From: Octopus sinensis
Taxonomy: Eukaryota
Length of the DNA stretch: 64,000 nt
Assembly: GCF_006345805.1 (NCBI RefSeq)
Contig: NW_021835474.1
Location: forward strand, 1 to 64,000
Reading direction: 5' to 3'
Positions 7,908 through 63,390 of this stretch are shown here, piece by piece. Position numbers and translations under genes: made by a program. Position 1 is the stretch's first letter; the number at the start of each line of letters is the position of its first letter. A model generated the notes under the pieces. The model had not been told where the DNA came from and did not search any database. It worked only from the letters and a program-made list of their open reading frames with translations.

Positions 7908-8626
7908 CATCATCATCATCATCATTATCGTTTCACGTCCGCTTTCCATGCTAGCATGGGTTGGATGGCTCAACTGTGGTCTGTGAAGCCAGAAAGCTGC
8001 ACCAGGCCCAGTCTAATCTGGCAGTGTTTCTACAGCTGAATGCCCTTCCTAACGCCAACCACTCCGTGAGTGTAGTGGGTGCTTTTTACGTGCCACCAGC
8101 ACAGGTGCCAGGGGAGACTGGCAACGGCCACAATTGGTTGGTGCTTTTTACGTGCCACCGGCACAGGTGCCAGGGGAGGCTGGCAAAGGCCAGCCACGAT
8201 CGGTTGGTGCTTTTTATGTGCCACCGGCACAGGTGCCAGGGGAGGCTGGCAATGGCCACGATCGGTTGGTGCTTTTTACGTACCACCGGCACAGGTGCCA
8301 GGGGAGGCTGGCAACATCCACGATCGGTTGGTGCTTTTTATGTGCCACCGTCAGAGGTGCCAGAGGAGGCTGGCAACGGCCATGATCAGTTGGTGCTTTT
8401 TACGTGCCACCGGCACAGGTGCCAGGGTAGGCTGGCAACGGCCACAATCGGTTGGTGCTTTTTATGTGCCACCGGCAGAGGTGCCAGAGGAGGCTGGCAA
8501 CGGCCATGATCAGTTGGTGCTTTTTACGTGCCACTGGCACAGGTGCCAGGGGAGGCTGCCAACAGCCACGATTAGTTGATGCTTTTTACATGCCATCGGC
8601 ACGGAAGCCAGTCAAGGTGGAACTGG

Positions 8627-12878: not shown

Positions 12879-13090
12879 ATGCATTATTTTGTAGCTTCAA
12901 AACTTTGATGATGTAATTGTATATTTTATGATGGCATTGAAGGGTAAGTGTGATAGGCTGGATCTGGTTGGTTAGAATTTAAAACAGCTAGCATATTTGG
13001 GCTTTATAGTTAGGAGGTAAGCTGGCAGAATTGTTAGCAATCCAGGCAAAATGCTAAGTGGTATTTCCTGTCTTTACATTTTGAGTGCAA

Positions 13091-14032
13091 ATACCTATTC
13101 CTTTACTACCCACAAGGGGCTAAACACAGAGAGGACAAACAAGGACAGACAAAAGGATTAAGTTGATTATATCGACCCCAGTGGTTCACTGATACTTAAT
13201 TTTGTCGTCCCCGAAAAGATGAGAGGCAAAGTTGACCTTGGCGGAATTTGAACTCAGAATGCAACGGCAGACAAAATACCTATTTCTTTACTACCCACAA
13301 GGGGCTAAACACAGAGAGGACAAACAAGGACAGACAAACGGATTAAGCTGATTATATCGACCCCAGTGGTTCACTGATACTTAATTTTGTCGTCCGCGAA
13401 AGGATGAAAGGCAAAGTCGACCTCGGCCGAATTTAAACTCAGAACGTAGCGGCAGACGAAATACCTATTTCTTTACTACCCACAAGGGGCTAAACACAGA
13501 GAGGACAAGCAAGGACAGTCAAACGGATTAAGTTGATTATATCGACCCCAGTGTTTCACTGGTACTTAATTTTGTCGTCCCCGAAAGGATGAAAGGCAAA
13601 GTCGACCTCGGCCAAATTTGAACTCGGAACATAAAGACAGACGAAATACCTATTTCTTTACTACCCACAAGGGGCTAAACACAGAGGGGACAAACAAGGA
13701 CAGACAAACGGATTAAGTTGATTATATCGACCCCAGTGTTTCACTGGTACTTAATTCTGTCGTCCCCGAAAGGATGAAAGGCAAAGTCGACCTCGGCGGA
13801 ATTTGAACTCAGAATGCAACGGCAGACAAAATACCTATTTCTTTACTACCCACAAGGGGCTAAACACAGAGAGGACAAACAAGGACAGACAAACGGATTA
13901 AGTTGATTATATCGACCCCAGTGTTTCACTGGTACTTAATTTTGTCGTCCCCGAAAGGATGAAAGGCAAAGTCGACCTCGGCCAAATTTAAACTCAGAAT
14001 GTAGCGGCAGACGAAATACCGCTAAGCATTTC
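13091..14032 (-). repeat. SINE multimer: five 185-bp units plus a truncated head, nested antisense in a related + strand SINE (about 13011-14135)
   Basis: ATACC junctions at 13091, 13276, 13461, 13646, 13831, 14016. Confidence 0.9.
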
Positions 14033-14197
14033 AGAGTCAATAAAATAAGTACCAGTTGAGTATTGGGGTTGATGAAATCGACTTGTCCTGTCCCCCATAA
14101 TTTCAGGCCTTGTGCCTATGGTAGAAAGGATATTTGCGCTGGATACAGTCACTTCAAATGCAAAAGGGTTAAAAAAAAAAAAAAAAAAAAAAATCCG

Positions 14198-14916: not shown

Positions 14917-15789
14917 CTAGAAAAGAAAAAAAAATAGCAAAATTATAATAGATAAGGTTATTTAGAATGAAAGCTGGTTAAGTTGCTACAATTACTCCAG
15001 TTTAATATAAATACTTTACACCATCAAGCTATACAAATTTGAAACCAAACAATTGTTGCGGAAAAGATCAAGGCTACATGTAAATTTAGACCCCCCTTTA
15101 GTTATAAATGACTATGGGATTGCACCTAGAAAGTCCCCCCCGCCAAGGCATAAGTCTGGCCAAGGTTGTTTATGGAAGACCAGCGGTTGACCAGGCATAC
15201 CAGCCTCACCTTTCCATGCCACTGATGTTACCCAAGGGAAAGGCAAAGGGGCCGAGACAGCTTGGCACCAGTGACATCGCAACTCATTTCTACAGCTAAA
15301 AGAACTGGAGCAATATGAAATAAAGTATCTTACTCAAGAACACAACACACAGCCTGGTCCGGGAATCGAACTCACATCCTCAAGATTATGAGTCCAACAC
15401 TCTAACCACTGAGCCATGTGATCTTCACATCTAAATACCTGTAACCATATTCAGTTACACTGTTTCATCACTTTCTATGTTATATATTACTTGTGCTGAT
15501 CTTCTGTATTCAGTTGTGATGCTATATTCAGTCAAACATTTATACATGTTCTATTAAATTTCAAAATAATTAGCTATCAACACGTCAGTGTTAGCTATAA
15601 ACCTAAATAAATCACCAATCAGGAAGCAGTTGAATCCAATTGTAGTGTCCGATTGAGAGGTGCATTGTTAACATTATAGTAGTCTGGATACCATTGGTGA
15701 CATCCAGACTACAGTGGAGAAGGCAGGCCACTGGATTTGGTTATAAAGAGATGATAAGCAATGGTTTGAAGAAATTTGAGCAAAACCTA

Positions 15790-16915
15790 TTTCTTTACTA
15801 CCCACAAGGGGCTACACACAGAGAGGACAAACAAGGACAGACAAACAGATTAAGTTGATTACATCGACCCCAGTGCGTAACTGGTATTTATTTAGTCGAC
15901 CCCGAAAGGATGAAAGGCAAAGTCGACCTCGACGGAATTTGAACTCAGAACGTAACGGCAGACGAAATACCTAAACATAGAGGGGACAAACAAGGACAGA
16001 CAAACGGATTAAGTCGATTATATCGACCCCAGTGCGTAACTGGTACTTATTTAATCGACCCCGAAAGGATGAAAGGCAAAGTCGACCTCGGCGGAATTTG
16101 AACTCAGAACGTAACGGCAGAAGAAATACCTATTTCTTTACTATCCACAAGGGGCTACACACAGAAGGGACAAACAAGGACAGACAAACGGATTAAGTCG
16201 ATTATATTGACCCCAGTGCGTAACTGGTACTTATTTAATCAACTCCGAAAGGATGAAAGGCAAAGTCGACCTCGACGGAATTTCAACACAGAACGTAACG
16301 GCAGATGAAATACCTATTTCTTTACTACCCACAAGGGGCTACACACAGAGAGGACAAAGAAGGACAGACAAACGGATTAAGTCGATTATATTGACCCCAG
16401 TGCATAACTGGTACTTATTTAATCGACCCCGAAAGGATGAAAGGCAAAGTCGACCTTGGTGGAATTTGAACTCAGAACGTAGCGGCAGACAAAATACCTA
16501 TTTCTTTACGACCCACAAGGGGCTAAACACAGAGGGGACAAACAAGGACAGACAAACGGATTAAGTCGATTATATTGACTCCAGTGCGTAACTGGTACTT
16601 ATTTAATCGACCCCGAAAGGATGAAAGGCAAAGTTGACCTTGATGGAATTTGAACTCAGAACGTAGTGGCAAACGAAATACCTATTTCTTTACTACCCAT
16701 AAGGGGCTAAACACAGAGAGGACAAAGAAGGACAGACAAACGGATTAAGTCGATTATATTGACCCAAGTGCGTAACTGTTACTTATTTAATCGACCCCGA
16801 AAGAATGAAAGGCAAAGTCGACCTCGACGGAATTTGAACTCAGAACGTAGCGGCAGACGAAATACGGCTACGCATTTCGCCCGGTGTGCTAACGTTTCTG
16901 CCAGCTCCCTGCCTT
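15790..16915 (-). repeat. SINE multimer: one tRNA-like head plus six ~184-bp units
   Basis: Junctions at 15967, 16126, 16310, 16494, 16678, 16862; one unit has a ~25-bp deletion; 17-bp TSD AATTTGAGCAAAACCTA (15773-15789 and 16916-16932). Confidence 0.9.
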
Positions 16916-17132
16916 AATTTGAGCAAAACCTAATAACCAGTTGATCTAGCAGACAGGGCTTCATTTCAACGAGTGGGGCTGGTGCACAACGATGCCATTG
17001 AGAGGAAGACCCCCGCCAAATAGCGTGCATTCTCTCCCATAAACTTGCTAGCGTCCAGTATGCAGAGCTTTGAACTGGTAGCACATGCATCTGCAAGTTG
17101 TATGCAAAAAAAAAAAAAAATGAATGGCAAGG

Positions 17133-17555: not shown

Positions 17556-18559
17556 TAGCAAGCAGAGAAAATCGTTAGCACACCAGGTGAAATACTTAGC
17601 AACCTTTCATTTAGCTTTACATTCTGAGTTCAAATTCCACCTAGGGTGACTTTGCCTTTCATCCTTTCTGGATTGATAAATTAATTACCAGTTGAACATT
17701 GGGGTTCATGTAATCAACTTAATCCTCCCCTAAAATTGCTGGCCTTGTGCCAAAATATGAAACCAGTATAACCGACAAAAGCAGTGAGCTGGATGAATGG
17801 TTACTGTGATGGAATAACTGTTTAGGTATTTCTGCCTACTTTCATCATCATCATCGTTTAACGTCCGTTCTCCATGCTAGCATGGGTTGGACGGTTCGAC
17901 CGGGGACCTGGGAAGCCAGAAGGCTGCACCAGGCTCCAGTCTGATCTGGCAGTGTTTCTACAGTGGATGCCCTTCCTAACGCCAACCACTCCGTGGGTGT
18001 AGTTGATGCTTTTTACGTGCCACCTGCACAGGTGCCAGGCGAGGCTGGCAACGGCCATGGTCAGATTGATGCATTTTACGTGCCACCGGCACGGAGGCCA
18101 GGCGAGGCGGCACTGGCAAAGTCGAGGCGGCACTGGCAGTCGAGGCGGCACTGGCAAAGATGTCACGCAGTGGGAATGAACCCGGAACCATGTGGTTGGT
18201 TAGCAAGCTACTTACCACACAGCCACTCCTGCGCCTACTTTATGTTCTGAATTCAAATACTGCTGGTTTTTATATTGCCCTTCATCCTTTTGGGGTCAAT
18301 AAAGTTGATCTAGCTGGCAGGGCTTCATTTCAGTGAGTGGGGCTGGTGCACAATAATGTTATTGAGAGGGAGACCCCAAAATGGCGTGCATTCTCTCCTG
18401 ATGACCCCATAAATTTGCTAGCATCAATAAAGTAAGTACCAGTTGAACTCTGGGGCCAGTGTAATCAATTTATCTCATCCCACAAAATTGCTGTCTTGTG
18501 TCAGAATTTGAAACCCATATTATGATTCACAAAGCCTGGATCAGGCATGTCACACTTAC

Positions 18560-47345: not shown

Positions 47346-48399
47346 ATGGATCATTCAGCTCTGGCTGGTGTTGGTTAGAAGTGCTTCATTATTACAACAG
47401 AAAATATGATGTGTCCTCCTGGGATCCTCTCAACTCCCTATCACAAGGGTTTTGTTCAGGTTACATATCAGTAAATATAGGCTCCCAGCGATCATTCAAG
47501 TTAGTTATTTAGAAATTGTTACACACTACGTGATTGGATCCGAGATCCAGTTCCCTCGCAATATTCAACCAATCAAAATACAGGACTTGGCTAAATATTC
47601 CAAACTCCCATGATAAATCAAACGACCATTCATTAAAGATTAACATGTGGCGCCTATAAAAGGCTAGTCGACTACAAAATGCCACAACAGAAATGGGTCT
47701 TGCTACAAGACATTTCTGTAGGAGAGGGAAACTCCAAAATTACTTCACATCATTGGAAAGCCAGAGGTATTACTCTTGTCTGTTACTGAATAACTTGGCT
47801 TTGGAGGTGAGAGTTTAAGTGATAATTTTCATCAATGGTTATATTCATCTACAATGTATGTATGTATGACTTCTCTTTCTCATTTTAATTTAGAGTAAAT
47901 TTTGACCAACCATTGACTTGATAGCAAAGTTGTGAAGGAAAGTATCCTGTTTCAATCGTCAGTCTTTAAATCTATAGAAAATCTTGCAGATTTCTATGAA
48001 AAGTCTGGCTGCATACACGTTAGCATGACTGAGGGCTGGTGAACCAGATGGCTGCACCAGGCTCCAATCTTGATCTTGCAGAGTTTCTACAGCTGGATGC
48101 CCTTCCTAACGCCAACTACTCCAAGAGTGTAGTGGGTGCTTTTTACGTGCCACCGACACGGGGCCAGTCAGGCGGCACTGGTAACGACCTCGCACGAATC
48201 TTTTACACATGCCACCAGCATGGGTGCCAGTAAGGCGATGCTGGTAACGATCCCGCCCGAATGGTGTTTTTTACGTGCCACCGGCACGGAGGCCAGACAG
48301 CCGCTCTGGCAACGATCACGCTTGGATGGTGCTCTTAATGTCTAACAATAAATCAAATGTGTCTTGGTTAGTATTTCATTTATAATTTGTTGAACTTAC

Positions 48400-56362: not shown

Positions 56363-57237
56363 AAAAAATTATTTACTTTGTGTAAAAAAAAAAAAAATTA
56401 TTTTGTGTTTTATTTACTTTGCTAGGTAGTCGTTGTAGGATCGACTAGTCACGACTAGCTAGTGCGGATGCACAAGTACGCGAATGCGCGCACCGGGACC
56501 ACTCTTCTTAAGTAGTACCCCAAAATTGTAACTTTATTACCGGTCGCCAAATTATTACCATTGTCGGTACCTAGAATGTTTCTCTCCTGTCTCCTCGTAT
56601 GTTTCTTTGATGTTCTAGTAATAATTTTTTTTTACTGTAGCACCAGTTAGTAGTTTGGGGACACATGCTGACCATTTAATGTTGGCATTGCGCAAATTCA
56701 GACAACAACTTCCGGCCAAATCGAAAGCGCTTCCAAAAGCTAAAAGTTCAGGGGAGTTGCTGCGAAGACGTTGAACTGTCAACAATGTACTTTCAAGATC
56801 TTCATTCTATCAGCCTCGTCTAGAACATTAGAAGTTACTGTTTTGCTTTCGCAATCATTAGCAACTATGAATCCTTGGACCCAGTTCTTCAAGTGACATT
56901 CGTTTCTTTTAAGCAGTTATGAAGCTTATTATATCGTTTTCATCCGGTTTGCTGAAATCGGCTTTTTCCAGCAAGATTCGTATCTGCATTGACATTTGTC
57001 CTCTTTTGTATTTCCACTCTGGAGACCCTGGAAATTGTAGTAAGTGAAACCGAAATTATTCATATCTTACAAATGTTTTTCTTGCCAGACTCTATGTTTA
57101 CATTTTGATGTTTAGCACACGCACCTTAATTTCTCCTGTAATTTACGTTTGTTCTGCGTTGTTTGGAAACTGTAATAAGAATTGTATTTCATTTGAACAC
57201 ATACAATTCATTTGCATTCTGGTATCTATCGTTACCT

Positions 57238-57581
57238 ATTTCTTTACAACCCACAAGGGGTTACACAGAGGGGACAAACGGATTAAGTCGATTACATCGA
57301 CCCCAGTGCGTAACTGGTCCTTAATTTATCGACCCGAAAGGATGAAGGCAAAGTCCTTCTGGAGGATTTGAACTCAGAACTTAAATGCAGATGAAATACC
57401 TATTTCTTTATACCCACAAGGGGCTAAACACAGAGGGGACACAACAAGGACAGAAAAGGGATTAAGTCGATTACATCGACCCCAGTGCGTAACTGGTACT
57501 AATTTATCGACCCGAAAGGATGAAAGGCAAAGTCGACCTCGGCGGAATTTGAACTCAGAACGTAACGGCAGACGAAATACC
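57238..57581 (-). repeat. Two tandem SINE body+Tx1-like-tail units (3' part of the SINE split by the LINE)
   Basis: Same unit as the arrays at 13091 and 15790; junctions at ...GAAATACC|TATTTC. Confidence 0.85.
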
Positions 57582-57828
57582 AATTTCTTTATTGCCCACG
57601 GGGGCCAAACATAGATATGGACAGTACAACTGATGGGATCAGTGAATCGATATGATTTTACATAAATGTGACATCAAAAATAAAATACAATACATAAAAA
57701 TCGAATGGAATACACAGTACAAAAACAATACAAATGAAGCGATGATCAAGTTACGCTCCGATCCCACAAGCCCCGATCTACCGCTGATACCTTTTTATTT
57801 TCCTTTTTTTTTTTTTTTCCTCGTCTAT

Positions 57829-60800
57829 TCACACGGTTCCTTGCACGCACAACACTCGTGCAACATACTTCCATCTCTTTTGGAACGTACACTCTGACAG
57901 ACACCTCTTCTCCAGCCACAGTTTCCTTTTCAAATGAAAAGAAAAAAAGGATCGTAAATTGTCACCAGAGATAAAGTTGCCTGTTAATTCCTTATCCTTA
58001 TCCTAGTATTCCATACAGCCTCTTTTGCTATTGCTACAACCGTGAGAAAACAATTCTTACCTTCGTTCGTTAGAACTCCCGGTGGGTCAATTTTTATAAT
58101 TGACTCAGTCGACAGCCGTACTCTTCCTTCGCCGGACAACAGATGTTCAGCATAAGCCCACATTTCAGTTATCTCCGGACACTGAACAATAGCGTGAGGG
58201 ACGGTTTCCCTGTCCCCACCGCATCTTGGACAGGTCGGCGACTGACGTTTACCATGTCTTGCGAGCTTATCCCAAACGGGCAAGGCACCTCTGTAGCATT
58301 GCCAGGTTAAGGACTTTTGGAAGTTGTCCAACGTTCTCAACCCGAATGTACGATGAAACAAGCTGTCCAGTTGAATAAATCCGAGACCTAGAGTCGACCC
58401 CAGGCCATCGTCGCATTCAGACTCTACCAACCCACTATATAAAATCCGTGTGGAACCCCCACCGCTGGCGTTGCCCGAGCGCCGGAACAGCAAGAGGGCC
58501 TTACGGCACTCTTTATGCCACTCACTCGACCTCGGTCTACGAGAACAGGCTTCCTGTTCGCAAAAACTCTTGAACTCAGGGAACATTTGTCTGGCCAGCG
58601 GAGACCACACCCGTTCACTATCCAGGAGAATCCAGAGGTGCCTCAACCTCAACGCATGTCTGCGCATCATTAACCAAGGCATCCCTAAACCTCCATTTAA
58701 AGGCTTTTGACAGCAGACAGAGCGTTTCACAAGTGGCGACCTGCCCTTCCACAAAAAGCGAAAGAGCTGTCTCTCCAACCTGATCAACCACGAATCCGGA
58801 CAGGGCACGACAGTCAGGCGGTAGGTAATGACCGATGCGATAAACACATTGGCCACTTCCGCCCTCCCTTTCAGGGATAGCCACCGCCAAGACCAAGTCT
58901 TGACTACTGCAGCCACCCTGCTCAATACCTCCGTCCAGTTCTTCTCTATCTGGAGGCCTGGTCCAAACCAGACTCCCAGCAACTTAACCGGTCCCTCCGT
59001 CCAGCGCCTAACAACACTGTCTGAAGGCATCGACTTGCCAACCCAGGTGCCGAGCTGCAAGCCGACCGACTTTTCCCGGTTAATCTTTGCTCCTGCTACC
59101 TCCTCGTAAGCCTCAATAGTCTTACCTACTTCACGTAGGCGTACCACTGTGGTTACACTGATAGTGATATCATCCGCGAAAGCCGTAACAAACTCCTCTA
59201 GTCCTGGTTCTCTCGGGATGCCACTCAACCTTTGCAGTAATGGCTCGAGAGCCATCACATACAAAAGTGGTGAAAGCGGACATCCTTGACGAACCGAGCG
59301 TCTGATGCAGAACGGCTTCGAAAGGAAACCGTTCACCCGAACTATCGAGTCAATGTTGTGGTACAAAGCGATAAACCACCTGAGGAAGCCAAGGCCCAGG
59401 CCAAACCGCGCAAGTACAGTCGCTAGGTATCGATGGTCAACCCTATCAAAAGCTTTAGACTGGTCCAAATGCACCAATGCCCCACCTTTGCCAGATTTAT
59501 TACCAAACCTCTCTATGGTATAGCGAATAAGATGGAGGGTATCCTGAATGGTTCTGCCTGGGATGGCACATGTCTGTGCCTCCCCGACTATACCATTCGC
59601 GACACGCGCCAACCTTTTTGCTAGAACCTTGGCCAAAATCTTCACTTCTGCGTTTAACAGAGTGATGGGCCTGAAATTCTCTAGAACGTCCCCCTTGTCC
59701 GGGTCCTTTCTGACCAACGTCACTACTCCCCGGCGCACAGATCTGGGGATAAACCCATTCTGTTTCCAGTTCGCGTACACGTCAGTCAGTAGTTGCCCGA
59801 ACAAGTCTGGCATACATTTATACAGCTCGTACGGAAGACCATCAAGTCCCGGTGACTTACCCGCTTTACAATCGGCCAAAGCCTCCATCACCTCCTCAAG
59901 TGTGATTGGCCCTTCGCAAGACTCCGCATCCGACCCCGAGAGGCACGGCAGCCCGGTAAGAAAGTCCTCGAGGGCTCTCCCACCACCAGGACCGCCGTCA
60001 CCCCCGAACAGCTGGGCGAAGTACTCCCGAAAGACCTCACACATTTTCTCGGGTTCGTTTATCAAGACACCATTTTGATTCGTCAAAGACCGAATAGAGG
60101 AACTATTTCCTTGCCGAGCTTCCACCACTCGGGCCCATCCAGCGGCTTTGATTCCTTCACTTCCCATTGCACGTAACTTAGCTCTGGTAATACTTCCCAT
60201 GTGGTGGGCTTCAAGATGCTGGTTTAACTCCAGTCTTTTCACCCTCGCTTGGTCTGTATTACCAGTCCTCCAGGCTTCTTCTAGTTCCTTAACTAGACCA
60301 TCTCCTATTTTACGTCCCTTCTTAGCTAAACTTATGCTAAACCTAATAGACTCATATTTGATGGCTCTTTTTAGGGCGTACCACCATTTGTTATTAATGA
60401 TGGTACCTGTTAATGCCCTCTGTATTAACATCTTGATCCGCTTTCTGTACTCCTCAATCGCCAAAAGGGACGTATTGAGTTTCCAGTAGCCAGATCCCTG
60501 TCTATGCAACTTATCTACCGTCAGTTTACAGGTAACCATCTTGTGGTCACTGTAGCTGACTAGAAAAAACTGTGGACACTCAACTATGGACTTATTTTTC
60601 TCTAATTAAAATCCTATCTAGATATGTTCTGGTAGACCCGTCACTATTTGACCACGTCCACTGTGGAGTGTTCGGGTGCTCCAACCTATATGGATCTGCT
60701 AGCTGAAATTGACTTAGCAGATCCCGAAAGCCTGTGTTACATTTTCTGTTCATGTTCGAGTTTGAGCCAACACAATCTGTGTGTGCTGCACATATTGTAT

Positions 60801-61230
60801 TAGAGTCTCCTAACACTACTAGTGAATGCGACGTGGCTAGGAACTTTCCTAGGCCACGAAAATATTCAGTTTGCGGGCCAATAATGTTTGGTGCATAAAT
60901 AGCGACCAGCCTGATTGTCTTGCCACAACTGAATGTCAAGTCGAGAACGACCAGCCTGCCTTCTGGGTCAGAAAAAACCAACTTTTTCTCGGCTACCCGG
61001 TTTCTTTTTAGTAGGACCAACACCCCACCCCCACCTCCCGCCCGACTCGGAGAAACGTATTTCTCGTAGCCGTTCAGGAGGGGGAGCAGATCTCTTGGCC
61101 CCTTCACCCGGGTTTCCGTTGCAACAATTACATCCAAATTTCTCGACCTGATGTCATTCAGAAAGCGTCCTTGCTTCCAGCTTGACAACAGGCCATGAAC
61201 ATTTAAACAACCAATGTGAATAGCCATCAC
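57829..61230 (-). pseudogene. LINE ORF2 (APE endonuclease + reverse transcriptase + zinc finger), frameshifts near 60595 and 57990
   Basis: CLNVHGL, YAPN, YLDRI, SDHK (APE); GYWKLN, KSPGLDGL, FRPITLLN, KAFDRVDH, RQGCPLSP, FADD (RT); CPRC..H...C; a shifted frame continues ...FHLKRKLWLEKR...VQGTV* to 57829. Confidence 0.9.
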
Positions 61231-61238
61231 TTACCTGT

Positions 61239-62591
61239 TTAATTAGGATTGTCCGGTGGAGGGGGACCCTCCACCTTTTTTTTATCCAGGGTCGGAGGTG
61301 GACGGTCTTGGGAAATAGATTTGTCAAAATCCCGTCTCACCACCGACACAGAATTATCAGGTGGAGGGGGAATCTCCACCTTTTCCTTTTCTCGCGGGAT
61401 CGGAGCTGGTAATCCATGAAATATCGACTTGTTAAAATCTAATCTCAATGAAGATACAGTCTTTCTGTACTTATTTTGTAGAATTCTATAAGTCTTATTT
61501 GAGACTTCATATATGTCGTAATTGATAAATTCCTCTGAAAGGTTATCAATTTTTTTTACAGTCTTTATGAGTTGAATGTCTCTCATGAGCTCAGTATCTT
61601 TAGTGTATACGGCTATTATGCCTTTTTCTTCTTTTTCTCTTCTGGCAGTCTTTTTTGGTCGTTGTTCTGTAGTAGTCGCCGCTCTCGGCTGGGTTGCTGG
61701 TTGTATTTTTCTGTTTGTTGTTTTTTTCTCATCTGTCTTCTTTATCTTCTTCCTCTTTGTCTTTTTTCTCCTCTTCCTCCTCTTCTTCATTTTCCTTGCA
61801 GTTCCTTCGAATGTGGCCTAATTGACCACATAAAAAACATCGAGGTTTTCGGCCCTCAACAAACACCACGAGGTTCTCCTCCCCTACCTCAATTGTCTCA
61901 GGAATTGTTTGAATTATTTTAGGGTCCGCTTGAATGAGAAGATTAATTGTTTTACCATCCCAGCGTGGGTTTTCCGTAGCGGTAGCCTGGAGGAGAGTAA
62001 TTTTTTCTACCTCTTTGATTAGGACTGCCGCCAACAACCACATAGGTTCGACCTCTGGCGGGACCCTTGTAATTTTTATTCGCGACGTCCTCATCCCCAT
62101 ATAATAGGGTATTAACTCCACGTCGTTCGTTTTCAACGTTTCCACTGAGTTCTTGTGTGCTATTTCTTTATTGGTGAACCTTACTTCCACCGTTCCGAAT
62201 TTTTTTCCTCTTCTCAGAAATACTACGTCGCCCAATATTGGCTTTAAGCACTTTTCTATTTTCTCTTCTGACATTCTTTCAATTTTTCTTTTTGTAGACA
62301 ATATGTTTTGAAAATTATTGTTTTTTGCTTTTCTTCCTGTAATAACTTTTGCGGAGGTTCAATTTTCACACTGTTGTCATTTATTTCCATCATTTTGCTG
62401 TATTTCATAATTTCGCTTTTATTCGTCGACAGTATCTGGGTTCCACCCCCAGCAGCCAACGCAAAATTTTTTCCATTTTTTGGTTCTATCTGGATGCTAG
62501 GCACATCAATTATTCTCTTCGACACAATGCCTTTGTTCTCTGGCAAAGTCGGAAACTCTTCTGGTGAAAGTTCTGACGAGCTCTCAGACAC
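61239..62591 (-). pseudogene. LINE ORF1 (gag-like), two frameshifts
   Basis: Overlapping ORFs 62256-62591, 61729-62301 (zinc knuckle CFLCGQLGHIRRNC) and 61239-61790; ends 8 bp before the ORF2 ATG. Confidence 0.75.
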
Positions 62592-62924
62592 ATCTCCAAA
62601 AATATCAAATATATTATCCTCTCTGCTATTCCTTCTTGTAGCGGGGGAACCCTATTTCCTTGTCTGTAGTTGGCTCCTCGCCGGACATGTATTTCCTCCT
62701 CTCAACAGGAGAAACAAGTATTTCTGCTCCAACGGTAGGCTCCATGCTAGACGACATTCTTCCCCCGAAAGGGGGAATGAACAACGCGTGCTACCACAAG
62801 CACTAAGTGTTTTCAATTGAAAACTCCAACAGTTAAGTTATTCAACAGTTTAACAAGAAACAACAGTTGTTAACAATATTAACACCACGAAACAGCAATT
62901 CTTACTTCACGAACACATGTGCGA

Positions 62925-62985
62925 CAGACGAAATACCGCAAAGCATTTCGCCCGGCGTGCTAACGATTCTGCCAGCTCGCCGCCT
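62925..62985 (-). mobile_element. 5' head of the tRNA-like SINE split by the LINE
   Basis: GGCGGCGAGCTGGCAGAATCGTTAGCACGCCGGGCGAAATGC...GTATTTCGTCTG with an A-box-like TGGCAGAATCG; the whole composite is bounded by a 21-bp direct repeat (57217-57237 and 62986-63006, 1 mismatch). Confidence 0.85.
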
Positions 62986-63390
62986 TTCTGGTACCTATCG
63001 TTACCTTTATGTAAAACAGCCATTTGCATTTCTTGCTAAACTTGCTAAATTGGTGATTACACGCCGCTAGAATATTTCTTTTGAAATATTCTCTAAAGAA
63101 AACAACAACAAAATTGAAGCACAAACAGATAAGCTAAAGACTATTTGGCAATCTTTCGTTTGTAGTAGACCTTTCCGTCGATGATTTCCGTAAAAAACTT
63201 TTATTCTTTTACATATGGGCTTGCGGTAACTTCTGAAGTAATGAGAGCGAAAGAGACTAAGAGAAAGCGATTTTATGACGAGGGAAGTTCTTTTCAAGTT
63301 ACCGTGCAAGAGAAGCATTGATGTACATGTGTATGTGTGTGCGTATGTGTGTGTGTGTGTGTTTGATGGGGTGTGGGAGACAGAAAGTAT

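Follow-up and report, generated by a model that had tools for sequence, protein, structure and literature searches.

Tandem SINE arrays in Octopus sinensis with unit boundaries at the insertion site of a partner LINE

The window analyzed here, a 64,000-nt stretch of Octopus sinensis DNA, contains three tandem arrays of one SINE (arrays A, B, and C; Table 1), together with a LINE that has inserted into one of them. The insertion site of this LINE coincides with the boundary between repeat units: all ten internal unit-unit junctions across the three arrays resume at GGTATTT, the insertion base of the LINE, and the 16-bp target site duplication (TSD) of the LINE is the start of a unit. Because the LINE insertion and the ten junctions share one nucleotide, the unit boundary corresponds to the target of the partner LINE, and the SINE is read here as targeting itself; on the evidence of three arrays and one LINE, it is very probable that the junction arose in this way. 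The target lies between the A and B boxes of the SINE, a placement absent from the preliminary description of this DNA. Whereas one-head SINE arrays and Tx1-driven tandem SINEs are already published, what appears to be new here is a repeat boundary set by the target of the partner LINE inside the SINE promoter.

Array A lies on the minus strand and consists of one 49-bp head followed by six units (five of 184 bp and one of 159 bp), for which TRF reports a period of 184 and 6.0 copies over 15814-16865. The 17-bp TSD initially described around the whole array is exact, and its sequence occurs only twice within the window; at the spacing of the two copies, a 17-bp match was reached by 4 of 3000 random flank pairs. 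Because the final 2 nt of the TSD double as the end of the tail, its length is 15-17 bp. A single head is present, as had been proposed, but it does not start at 16862, the boundary between head and first unit falling at 16866/16867; likewise, five of the six units run to the LINE-like tail, whereas the fifth stops short of it. The first base of unit A1 is mutated. The motifs AAAACC (15782-15787), GTTACC (57231-57236), and, internally, AATACC were all found where the preliminary description placed them. Pairwise, the units of array A differ by 10-16 substitutions (6.0-8.7%), and thus are not a duplicated-read artefact. Two further candidates were rejected: an assembly artefact as the source of the arrays, given that units differ by at least 6 substitutions, and a segmental duplication relating arrays A and B, the flanks of which do not align.

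Table 1. Features of the three arrays, the host SINE, and the partner LINE, as positions in the window.
Feature	Position	Strand	Description
Host SINE of array B	13012..14135	+	Same head type, different tail; split by array B
Sister array B	13096..14033	-	13-nt 5′-truncated head stub (no A box) and five 185-bp units
3′ outer TSD copy, array A	15773..15789	-	Exact repeat of 16916-16932
Unit A6	15788..15971	-	184 bp, outermost; alleles at 107, 110, and 116 common to arrays B and C
Unit A5	15972..16130	-	159 bp; tail lacks its final 25 nt, the gap lying between two TAG microhomologies
Unit A4	16131..16314	-	184 bp
Unit A3	16315..16498	-	184 bp; T4 run at start, from C-to-T change
Unit A2	16499..16682	-	184 bp
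Unit A1	16683..16866	-	184 bp; begins at target site, with B box at 16839, then central domain and LINE-like tail
Single head, array A	16867..16915	-	A-box-like motif at 16903
5′ outer TSD copy, array A	16916..16932	-	17 bp, TAGGT start on element strand; exact repeat
Array C units	57237..57581	-	C1 (181 bp) and C2 (164 bp)
Partner LINE	57582..62921	-	5340 bp, between head and first unit of array C
LINE 5′ TSD copy	62922..62937	-	16 bp; 15/16 identical to 57566-57581, first 16 nt of unit C1
Array C head	62938..62986	-	A-box-like motif at 62974
5′ outer TSD copy, array C	62986..63006	-	20/21 identical to 57217-57237

The repeated element has several features of a tRNA-derived SINE (SINE2), namely A and B boxes, a 3′ end shared with a LINE, a TSD, and no coding capacity (the longest stop-free frame on the element strand spans 52 codons), and its boxes suggest a Pol III SINE of about 233 nt. 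The A-box-like motif is confined to the head and the B-box-like motif lies within the units, which places the repeat boundary inside the Pol III promoter; a strict B-box pattern is matched in 5/6 units of array A, 5/5 of array B, and 2/2 of array C. Both assignments follow consensus patterns that we take to define these boxes. Of the tRNA-like head first described, the boxes stand, whereas ARAGORN returned 0 tRNAs, and searches of Rfam at cutoffs of E 5 and E 10 detected neither a tRNA over array A nor a ribozyme family in the units. In its predicted fold, the head forms a long hairpin (z -1.9), one arm of which contains the target site. A reading of the central domain as a Meta domain is not supported; by eye, the domain bears no likeness to the BivaMeta, BivaMD, and BivaV alignments published in the supplement of PMC4824008.

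On the element strand, the majority unit has no T4 run, and each unit has six to seven T3 runs, TATTT and TGTTT among them. Units A3 (16494), B2 (13831), and B5 (13276) have gained a T4 Pol III terminator shortly after the junction, through a C-to-T change at unit position 8. A BLAST search of the window with the tail recovers 13 copies, all 13 of them in arrays A, B, and C, with five matches of 22-27 nt at E 0.39 dropped as chance. None of the four SINE relatives in the window that share the head and carry another tail is a multimer; these form a weak control, because all four are older and three have a decayed target site.

The junctions themselves are precise. Before nine of the ten, the full tail ends at one fixed base without poly(A), an ending shared by 12 of the 13 units, and neither a second head or TSD remnant (0/10) nor a foreign spacer (0/10) occurs at any of them. 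The junctions of arrays B and C do not fall at scattered positions but resume at the LINE target nucleotide. Outer insertion sites resemble this target: they read GGTTTTG (array A), GGTATTTG (array B), and GGTAACG (array C), so that all three begin with GGT at the cut set by the tail end. At a GGT frequency of 0.0133, the chance of this is ~2e-6, and since the motif is present in the 5′ TSD copy of arrays A and C, it belongs to the target and not to the element. These sites, with the junctions and the LINE at one nucleotide, bear out the shared but relaxed target preference that had been suggested earlier. The TSD of array C is 19-21 bp long. As a separate observation, the expected TSD of the crocodilian SINEU-3 is 16 bp and likewise begins AGGT (PMC4494074), which may be coincidence.

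The outer flanks match the head site over 3-7 nt, a likeness that could also be expected if there were no self-targeting and dimers had formed by microhomology-mediated duplication between a GGT(A) flank and the matching head motif; the deletion in unit A5 indicates that microhomology events do occur. However, the LINE itself occupies the head site with a proper TSD, and 3-7 nt would be unlikely to give multimers at three of three loci and no monomer. We regard this explanation as exceedingly improbable. At 16675-16688, as at every tail-unit junction, there is also an inverted repeat, GAAATA-GG-TATTTC, centred on the junction; the tail closes with six bases that, as reverse complement, match target positions 3-8, and the LINE junction (57574-57587) keeps five pairs of this repeat.

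The partner LINE puts 5.4 kb between the A box and the B box of array C. It has a broken ORF1 with a CCHC knuckle and an ORF2 comprising APE endonuclease, reverse transcriptase (RT), and zf-RVT regions, which is split by a frameshift. Its Pfam matches are Exo_endo_phos, RVT_1, and zf-RVT, those in NCBIfam are generic RT and exonuclease only, and among solved structures (PDB) L1 ORF2p is the closest (E 1e-51, against E 1e-20 for R2), with L1 EN providing the best matches to the endonuclease. Judged from these protein similarities, the LINE belongs to the L1 clade. It is probably Tx1-like, considering its CCHC ORF1, the lack of poly(A), and the animal host, criteria which we take to be those of that group; among the best 120 of 582 ORF2 matches, two carry an organism name, Argonauta hians in both cases, the nearer being a hypothetical protein (59%), and neither these 120 nor the endonuclease search includes a named Tx1 reference.

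The LINE and the SINE tail share their last ~42 nt at 79% identity, a score reached in 0 of 2000 shuffles, and both lack a poly(A) tail. The single LINE copy in the window (1/1) is at the SINE site, the criterion of Kojima for target specificity being over 20% of copies in one target (PMC4494074). Scans of a collection of prokaryotic contigs with the tail motif and with ORF2 of the LINE gave no match, as would be expected. An internal ~100-bp duplication (61245-61447, 72% identical) is present in the LINE. Array C units show several 1-bp homopolymer deletions relative to array A; some of these, and some of the LINE frameshifts, may be long-read assembly errors.

Array B sits antisense within another SINE, at the mutated B box of this host, and has no TSD; about 26-30 bp of the host are deleted, and there is 4-nt microhomology at the 5′ join. 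The mutated B box, the entry point of the array, reads like the target on the opposite strand, and it was this antisense site that was hit, 35 bp away from an intact sense target site at 13060 (within 13060-13095) that is unused. In the unit tree, array B is a clade with support 99/96, its diagnostic changes being fixed in all five units. Unit B1 resembles B4, and B2 resembles B5 (lag-3 P=0.067); the first 60 columns, to which the lag-3 likeness is confined, follow a-b-c-a-b, and the middle follows m-m-m-n-n. This pattern suggests either that a block was duplicated, with conversion, or that a dimer received a trimer. Overall, the unit sequences of array B point to a subfamily of its own or to local amplification, with some DNA-level exchange or multimer insertion.

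The variation among units bears on how the arrays grew, and was compared with simulations of a star model (one template, with CpG hot spots 1- to 20-fold). At non-CpG columns, array A has 5 shared columns against at most 1.5 simulated (P at most 0.012), and array B has 4 against at most 0.84 (P at most 0.007); with all columns counted, the excess in array A loses significance from 10-fold CpG rates upward. The shared variants are mosaic, with incompatible site pairs numbering 19/28 in array A and 17/36 in array B, and at three of the five shared non-CpG sites of array A both alleles are present in other arrays (two of these sites, in low-complexity sequence, could be recurrent mutations). Distances between arrays were taken pairwise, as the multiple alignment misaligns the C units and inflates their distances, and this weakens the clustering by array. 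Array membership does not separate the A from the C units (4273 of 20000 permutations, P=0.21), whereas it does separate the B from the A units (40 of 20000), with within-array divergence of about 6-8%. Because the units are mosaics of variants shared across arrays, the copying of one RNA is disfavored. Their composition would fit units drawn from a mixed source pool, with array B coming from another subfamily or having been amplified locally.

This result weighs on the proposal that all units were made at once from one 184-nt RNA, possibly a circle, by reiterative or rolling reverse transcription. Such a process accounts for the seamless junctions, the one TSD, and the lack of internal heads, although a single TSD does not discriminate among growth models. 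However, it predicts identical units at birth, and the star model is rejected at non-CpG sites in arrays A and B; moreover, Rfam gives no ribozyme match, and the identity of the junction with the DNA cut site of the LINE is left unexplained. We consider this proposal, one of three in the preliminary description, to be highly improbable.

Alternatively, one targeted insertion may have produced a dimer, with later growth by local unequal crossover, slippage, and gene conversion, as published for squamates (PMC10702118) and the ark clam (PMC11481361). The fixed diagnostic changes and lag-3 likeness of array B agree with such growth, as does its missing A box, by which it cannot template itself, and mosaicism also fits conversion. 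Array A, however, includes no near-identical pair of units, the closest being 10 substitutions apart, and it is not separable from array C, alleles being common to unlinked arrays; in addition, the boundary would still need self-targeting, and all three loci would have to expand independently. Unequal exchange is possible in array B, but we find it unlikely as the general mode of growth.

A fourth model, absent from the preliminary description, is that Pol III read-through of a heterogeneous source array yielded a multimeric RNA which was retrotransposed in one step. The lack of a T4 run in the majority unit favors this model, which would account for the array-specific alleles, the single TSD, and the layout of array B as a trimer inserted into a related dimer; the near-identical TSD pairs of arrays A (17/17) and C (20/21) agree with it as well, though their age is not significantly below that of the units (P 0.28 and 0.36). 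Nevertheless, the T3 runs of each unit include leaky stops: TATTT stops Pol III at 42-50%, and TGTTT at 20%, in mammalian constructs (PMC8466645), so that, if the octopod enzyme is similar, transcription should seldom continue over long distances. Units A3, B2, and B5 start with T4, and array B would require RT across five units, stopping within the last 50 nt. A multimeric RNA therefore seems to us a distinctly improbable source of the arrays.

Of the three models originally proposed, repeated insertion with homology-guided 5′ joining is the best supported, and a self-targeted junction followed by growth mainly through repeated insertion is the account that we favor, with moderate confidence. 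For the origin of the junction, this support derives from the coincidence of LINE site and junction and from the precedent of R2, in which over 80% of 5′ junctions are precise when the RNA includes sequence homologous to the upstream target, and none when it does not (PMC3774820). Sequential insertion in tandem is known for SINEU-3 by Tx1-Mar (PMC4494074).

Under the favored account, an L1-clade, probably Tx1-like LINE would mobilise the SINE of about 233 nt, its endonuclease nicking before GGTATTTC in the SINE head and the other strand being cut about 16 nt downstream. A founder SINE copy would land at a relaxed site (GGT plus A/T), and the outer TSD would be that of the founder. Later SINE RNAs would then be reverse-transcribed at the cut within the founder copy; their cDNA, holding the same 16 nt and the upstream head, could anneal to the target and prime second-strand synthesis. 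With the spare head trimmed, each event would add one more headless unit, regenerate the target site, and restore the spacing of A box and B box. The arrays are probably reshaped later, as in array B, by exchange or conversion at the DNA level or by the occasional insertion of an RNA two or three units long. We infer that this LINE family supplies the enzyme, that the 5′ join is homologous, and that growth proceeds one unit at a time.

Several observations stand against repeated insertion. Ten of ten seamless junctions at 80% precision have a probability of about 0.11, which makes homology-guided joining allowed but not comfortable, and plain TPRT would leave some second heads or TSD remnants, in contrast to the 0/10 here. 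The clade formed by array B requires a time-structured source pool or local amplification, and the intact sense site at 13060 has gone unused. The predicted age gradient is also absent: the divergence gradient proposed earlier as a check shows no head-to-tail trend (P=0.33, obtained from the multiple alignment that misaligns the C units, though the C order, 2 vs 11 private changes, is unaffected), and array A trends the opposite way (rho -0.46). Neighbor similarity in array A is likewise not significant (P=0.108).

Transcription of the arrays may contribute to their form. If host Pol III is similar to the mammalian enzyme, array transcripts would end in target-matching bases at the TATTT of the site, and such ends could explain why the tails are so precise and why the outer motif is relaxed; owing to the leakiness of TATTT, some transcripts would also stop early, within the head. 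A tentative extension, which we consider possible but doubtful, is a self-targeting loop between SINE and LINE, in which the LINE makes its cut inside its own parasite, between the A box and the B box, and arrays are better masters than monomers. A LINE insertion at the site would disable the SINE promoter and use an abundant safe harbour, a SINE insertion would capture the resident head and regenerate the site, and TATTT-ended array transcripts would match the target and help priming. If true, this loop would turn SINEs into satellites by way of retrotransposition, and the lack of monomers in the window could follow from it.

Similar arrays are known from other animals. The TSD-(SINE)n-TSD arrays of the ark clam Scapharca broughtonii (Martelossi, 2024; PMC11481361), also a mollusc, have 4-15 units and, like array A, one full head (of tRNA type in the clam), units cut at a fixed head position, and one outer TSD. 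They differ in that all units but the last lack the tail end, while 5/6 tails are complete in array A, and in that about 3% of SINEs are arrayed, compared with 13/13 copies in the window; furthermore, unequal recombination is invoked for them, whereas the boundary here is the LINE insertion site. The SINE-derived satellites (sSat) of squamates (Vassetzky, 2023; PMC10702118) share part-SINE tandem units, a longer terminal unit, a 150-180-bp scale, and di- or trimeric patterns, but reach up to 1000 units and are attributed to duplication and concerted evolution; a term search of the paper's text finds no mention of a target site or reverse transcription.

In crocodilians, SINEU-3 and Tx1-Mar (Kojima, 2015; PMC4494074) resemble the present case in that SINE and LINE share a target, tandem copies arise by repeated insertion, and the TSD is about 16 bp. 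Their target is a Mariner transposon, however, and not the SINE itself, and whole units sandwich the TSD, with snRNA-derived heads and poly(A) tails. For R2 (Eickbush, 2013; PMC3774820), as in the model favored here, target-bearing cDNA anneals upstream to give seamless junctions, with occasional tandem duplications when upstream annealing fails. R2 uses a restriction-like endonuclease and a ribozyme on an rDNA target that is destroyed, while here an APE-type LINE would act in trans, its SINE substrate both containing the site and restoring it. Rodent Dip/B1/B2 multimers (PMC8466645) are likewise head-to-tail, with up to eight units and a large share of copies, but consist of full-length units attributed to A-rich-tail insertion or dimeric templates, with no fixed internal cut. 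Retrozymes and ribozyme-bearing circular retroposons have a self-cleaving ribozyme per unit, and Rfam detects none here. Octopus repeat surveys (PMC13282606, PMC8967140), in the portions drawn on here, list L1-Tx1 and abundant SINEs without this arrangement. Our literature search yielded no SINE whose partner LINE targets the promoter of the SINE itself, although Repbase, Dfam, or the O. vulgaris library (Zenodo) may already hold the family.

The origin of SINE-derived tandem arrays has been ascribed mainly to unequal recombination (PMC11481361, PMC10702118). A repeat boundary at the partner LINE site in the SINE promoter offers a concrete retrotransposition mechanism for the start of an array, and its own SINE would be a new kind of target for a sequence-preferring APE LINE, suggesting a host-parasite conflict between LINE and SINE. 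The counting and dating of octopod SINEs, which make up 11.6% of O. vulgaris (PMC13282606), may be affected.

Other repeats occur in the window. A ~120-bp repeat is present in two copies, one at 16939-17060, starting 7 bp from the TSD of array A, and one at 18303-18424, which splits a SINE at 18238-18472; its reading as a MITE is not supported, an inverted-repeat search having found no terminal inverted repeat. Another tRNA-headed element, for which Rfam gives a tRNA score of 23 bits (below threshold), lies on the minus strand at 15359-15416, 360 bp from array A. A second family of tandem repeats, with a period of 62-66 bp, is found at 872-1101, 8078-8602, and 48135-48331, and is possibly a transposon-associated minisatellite.
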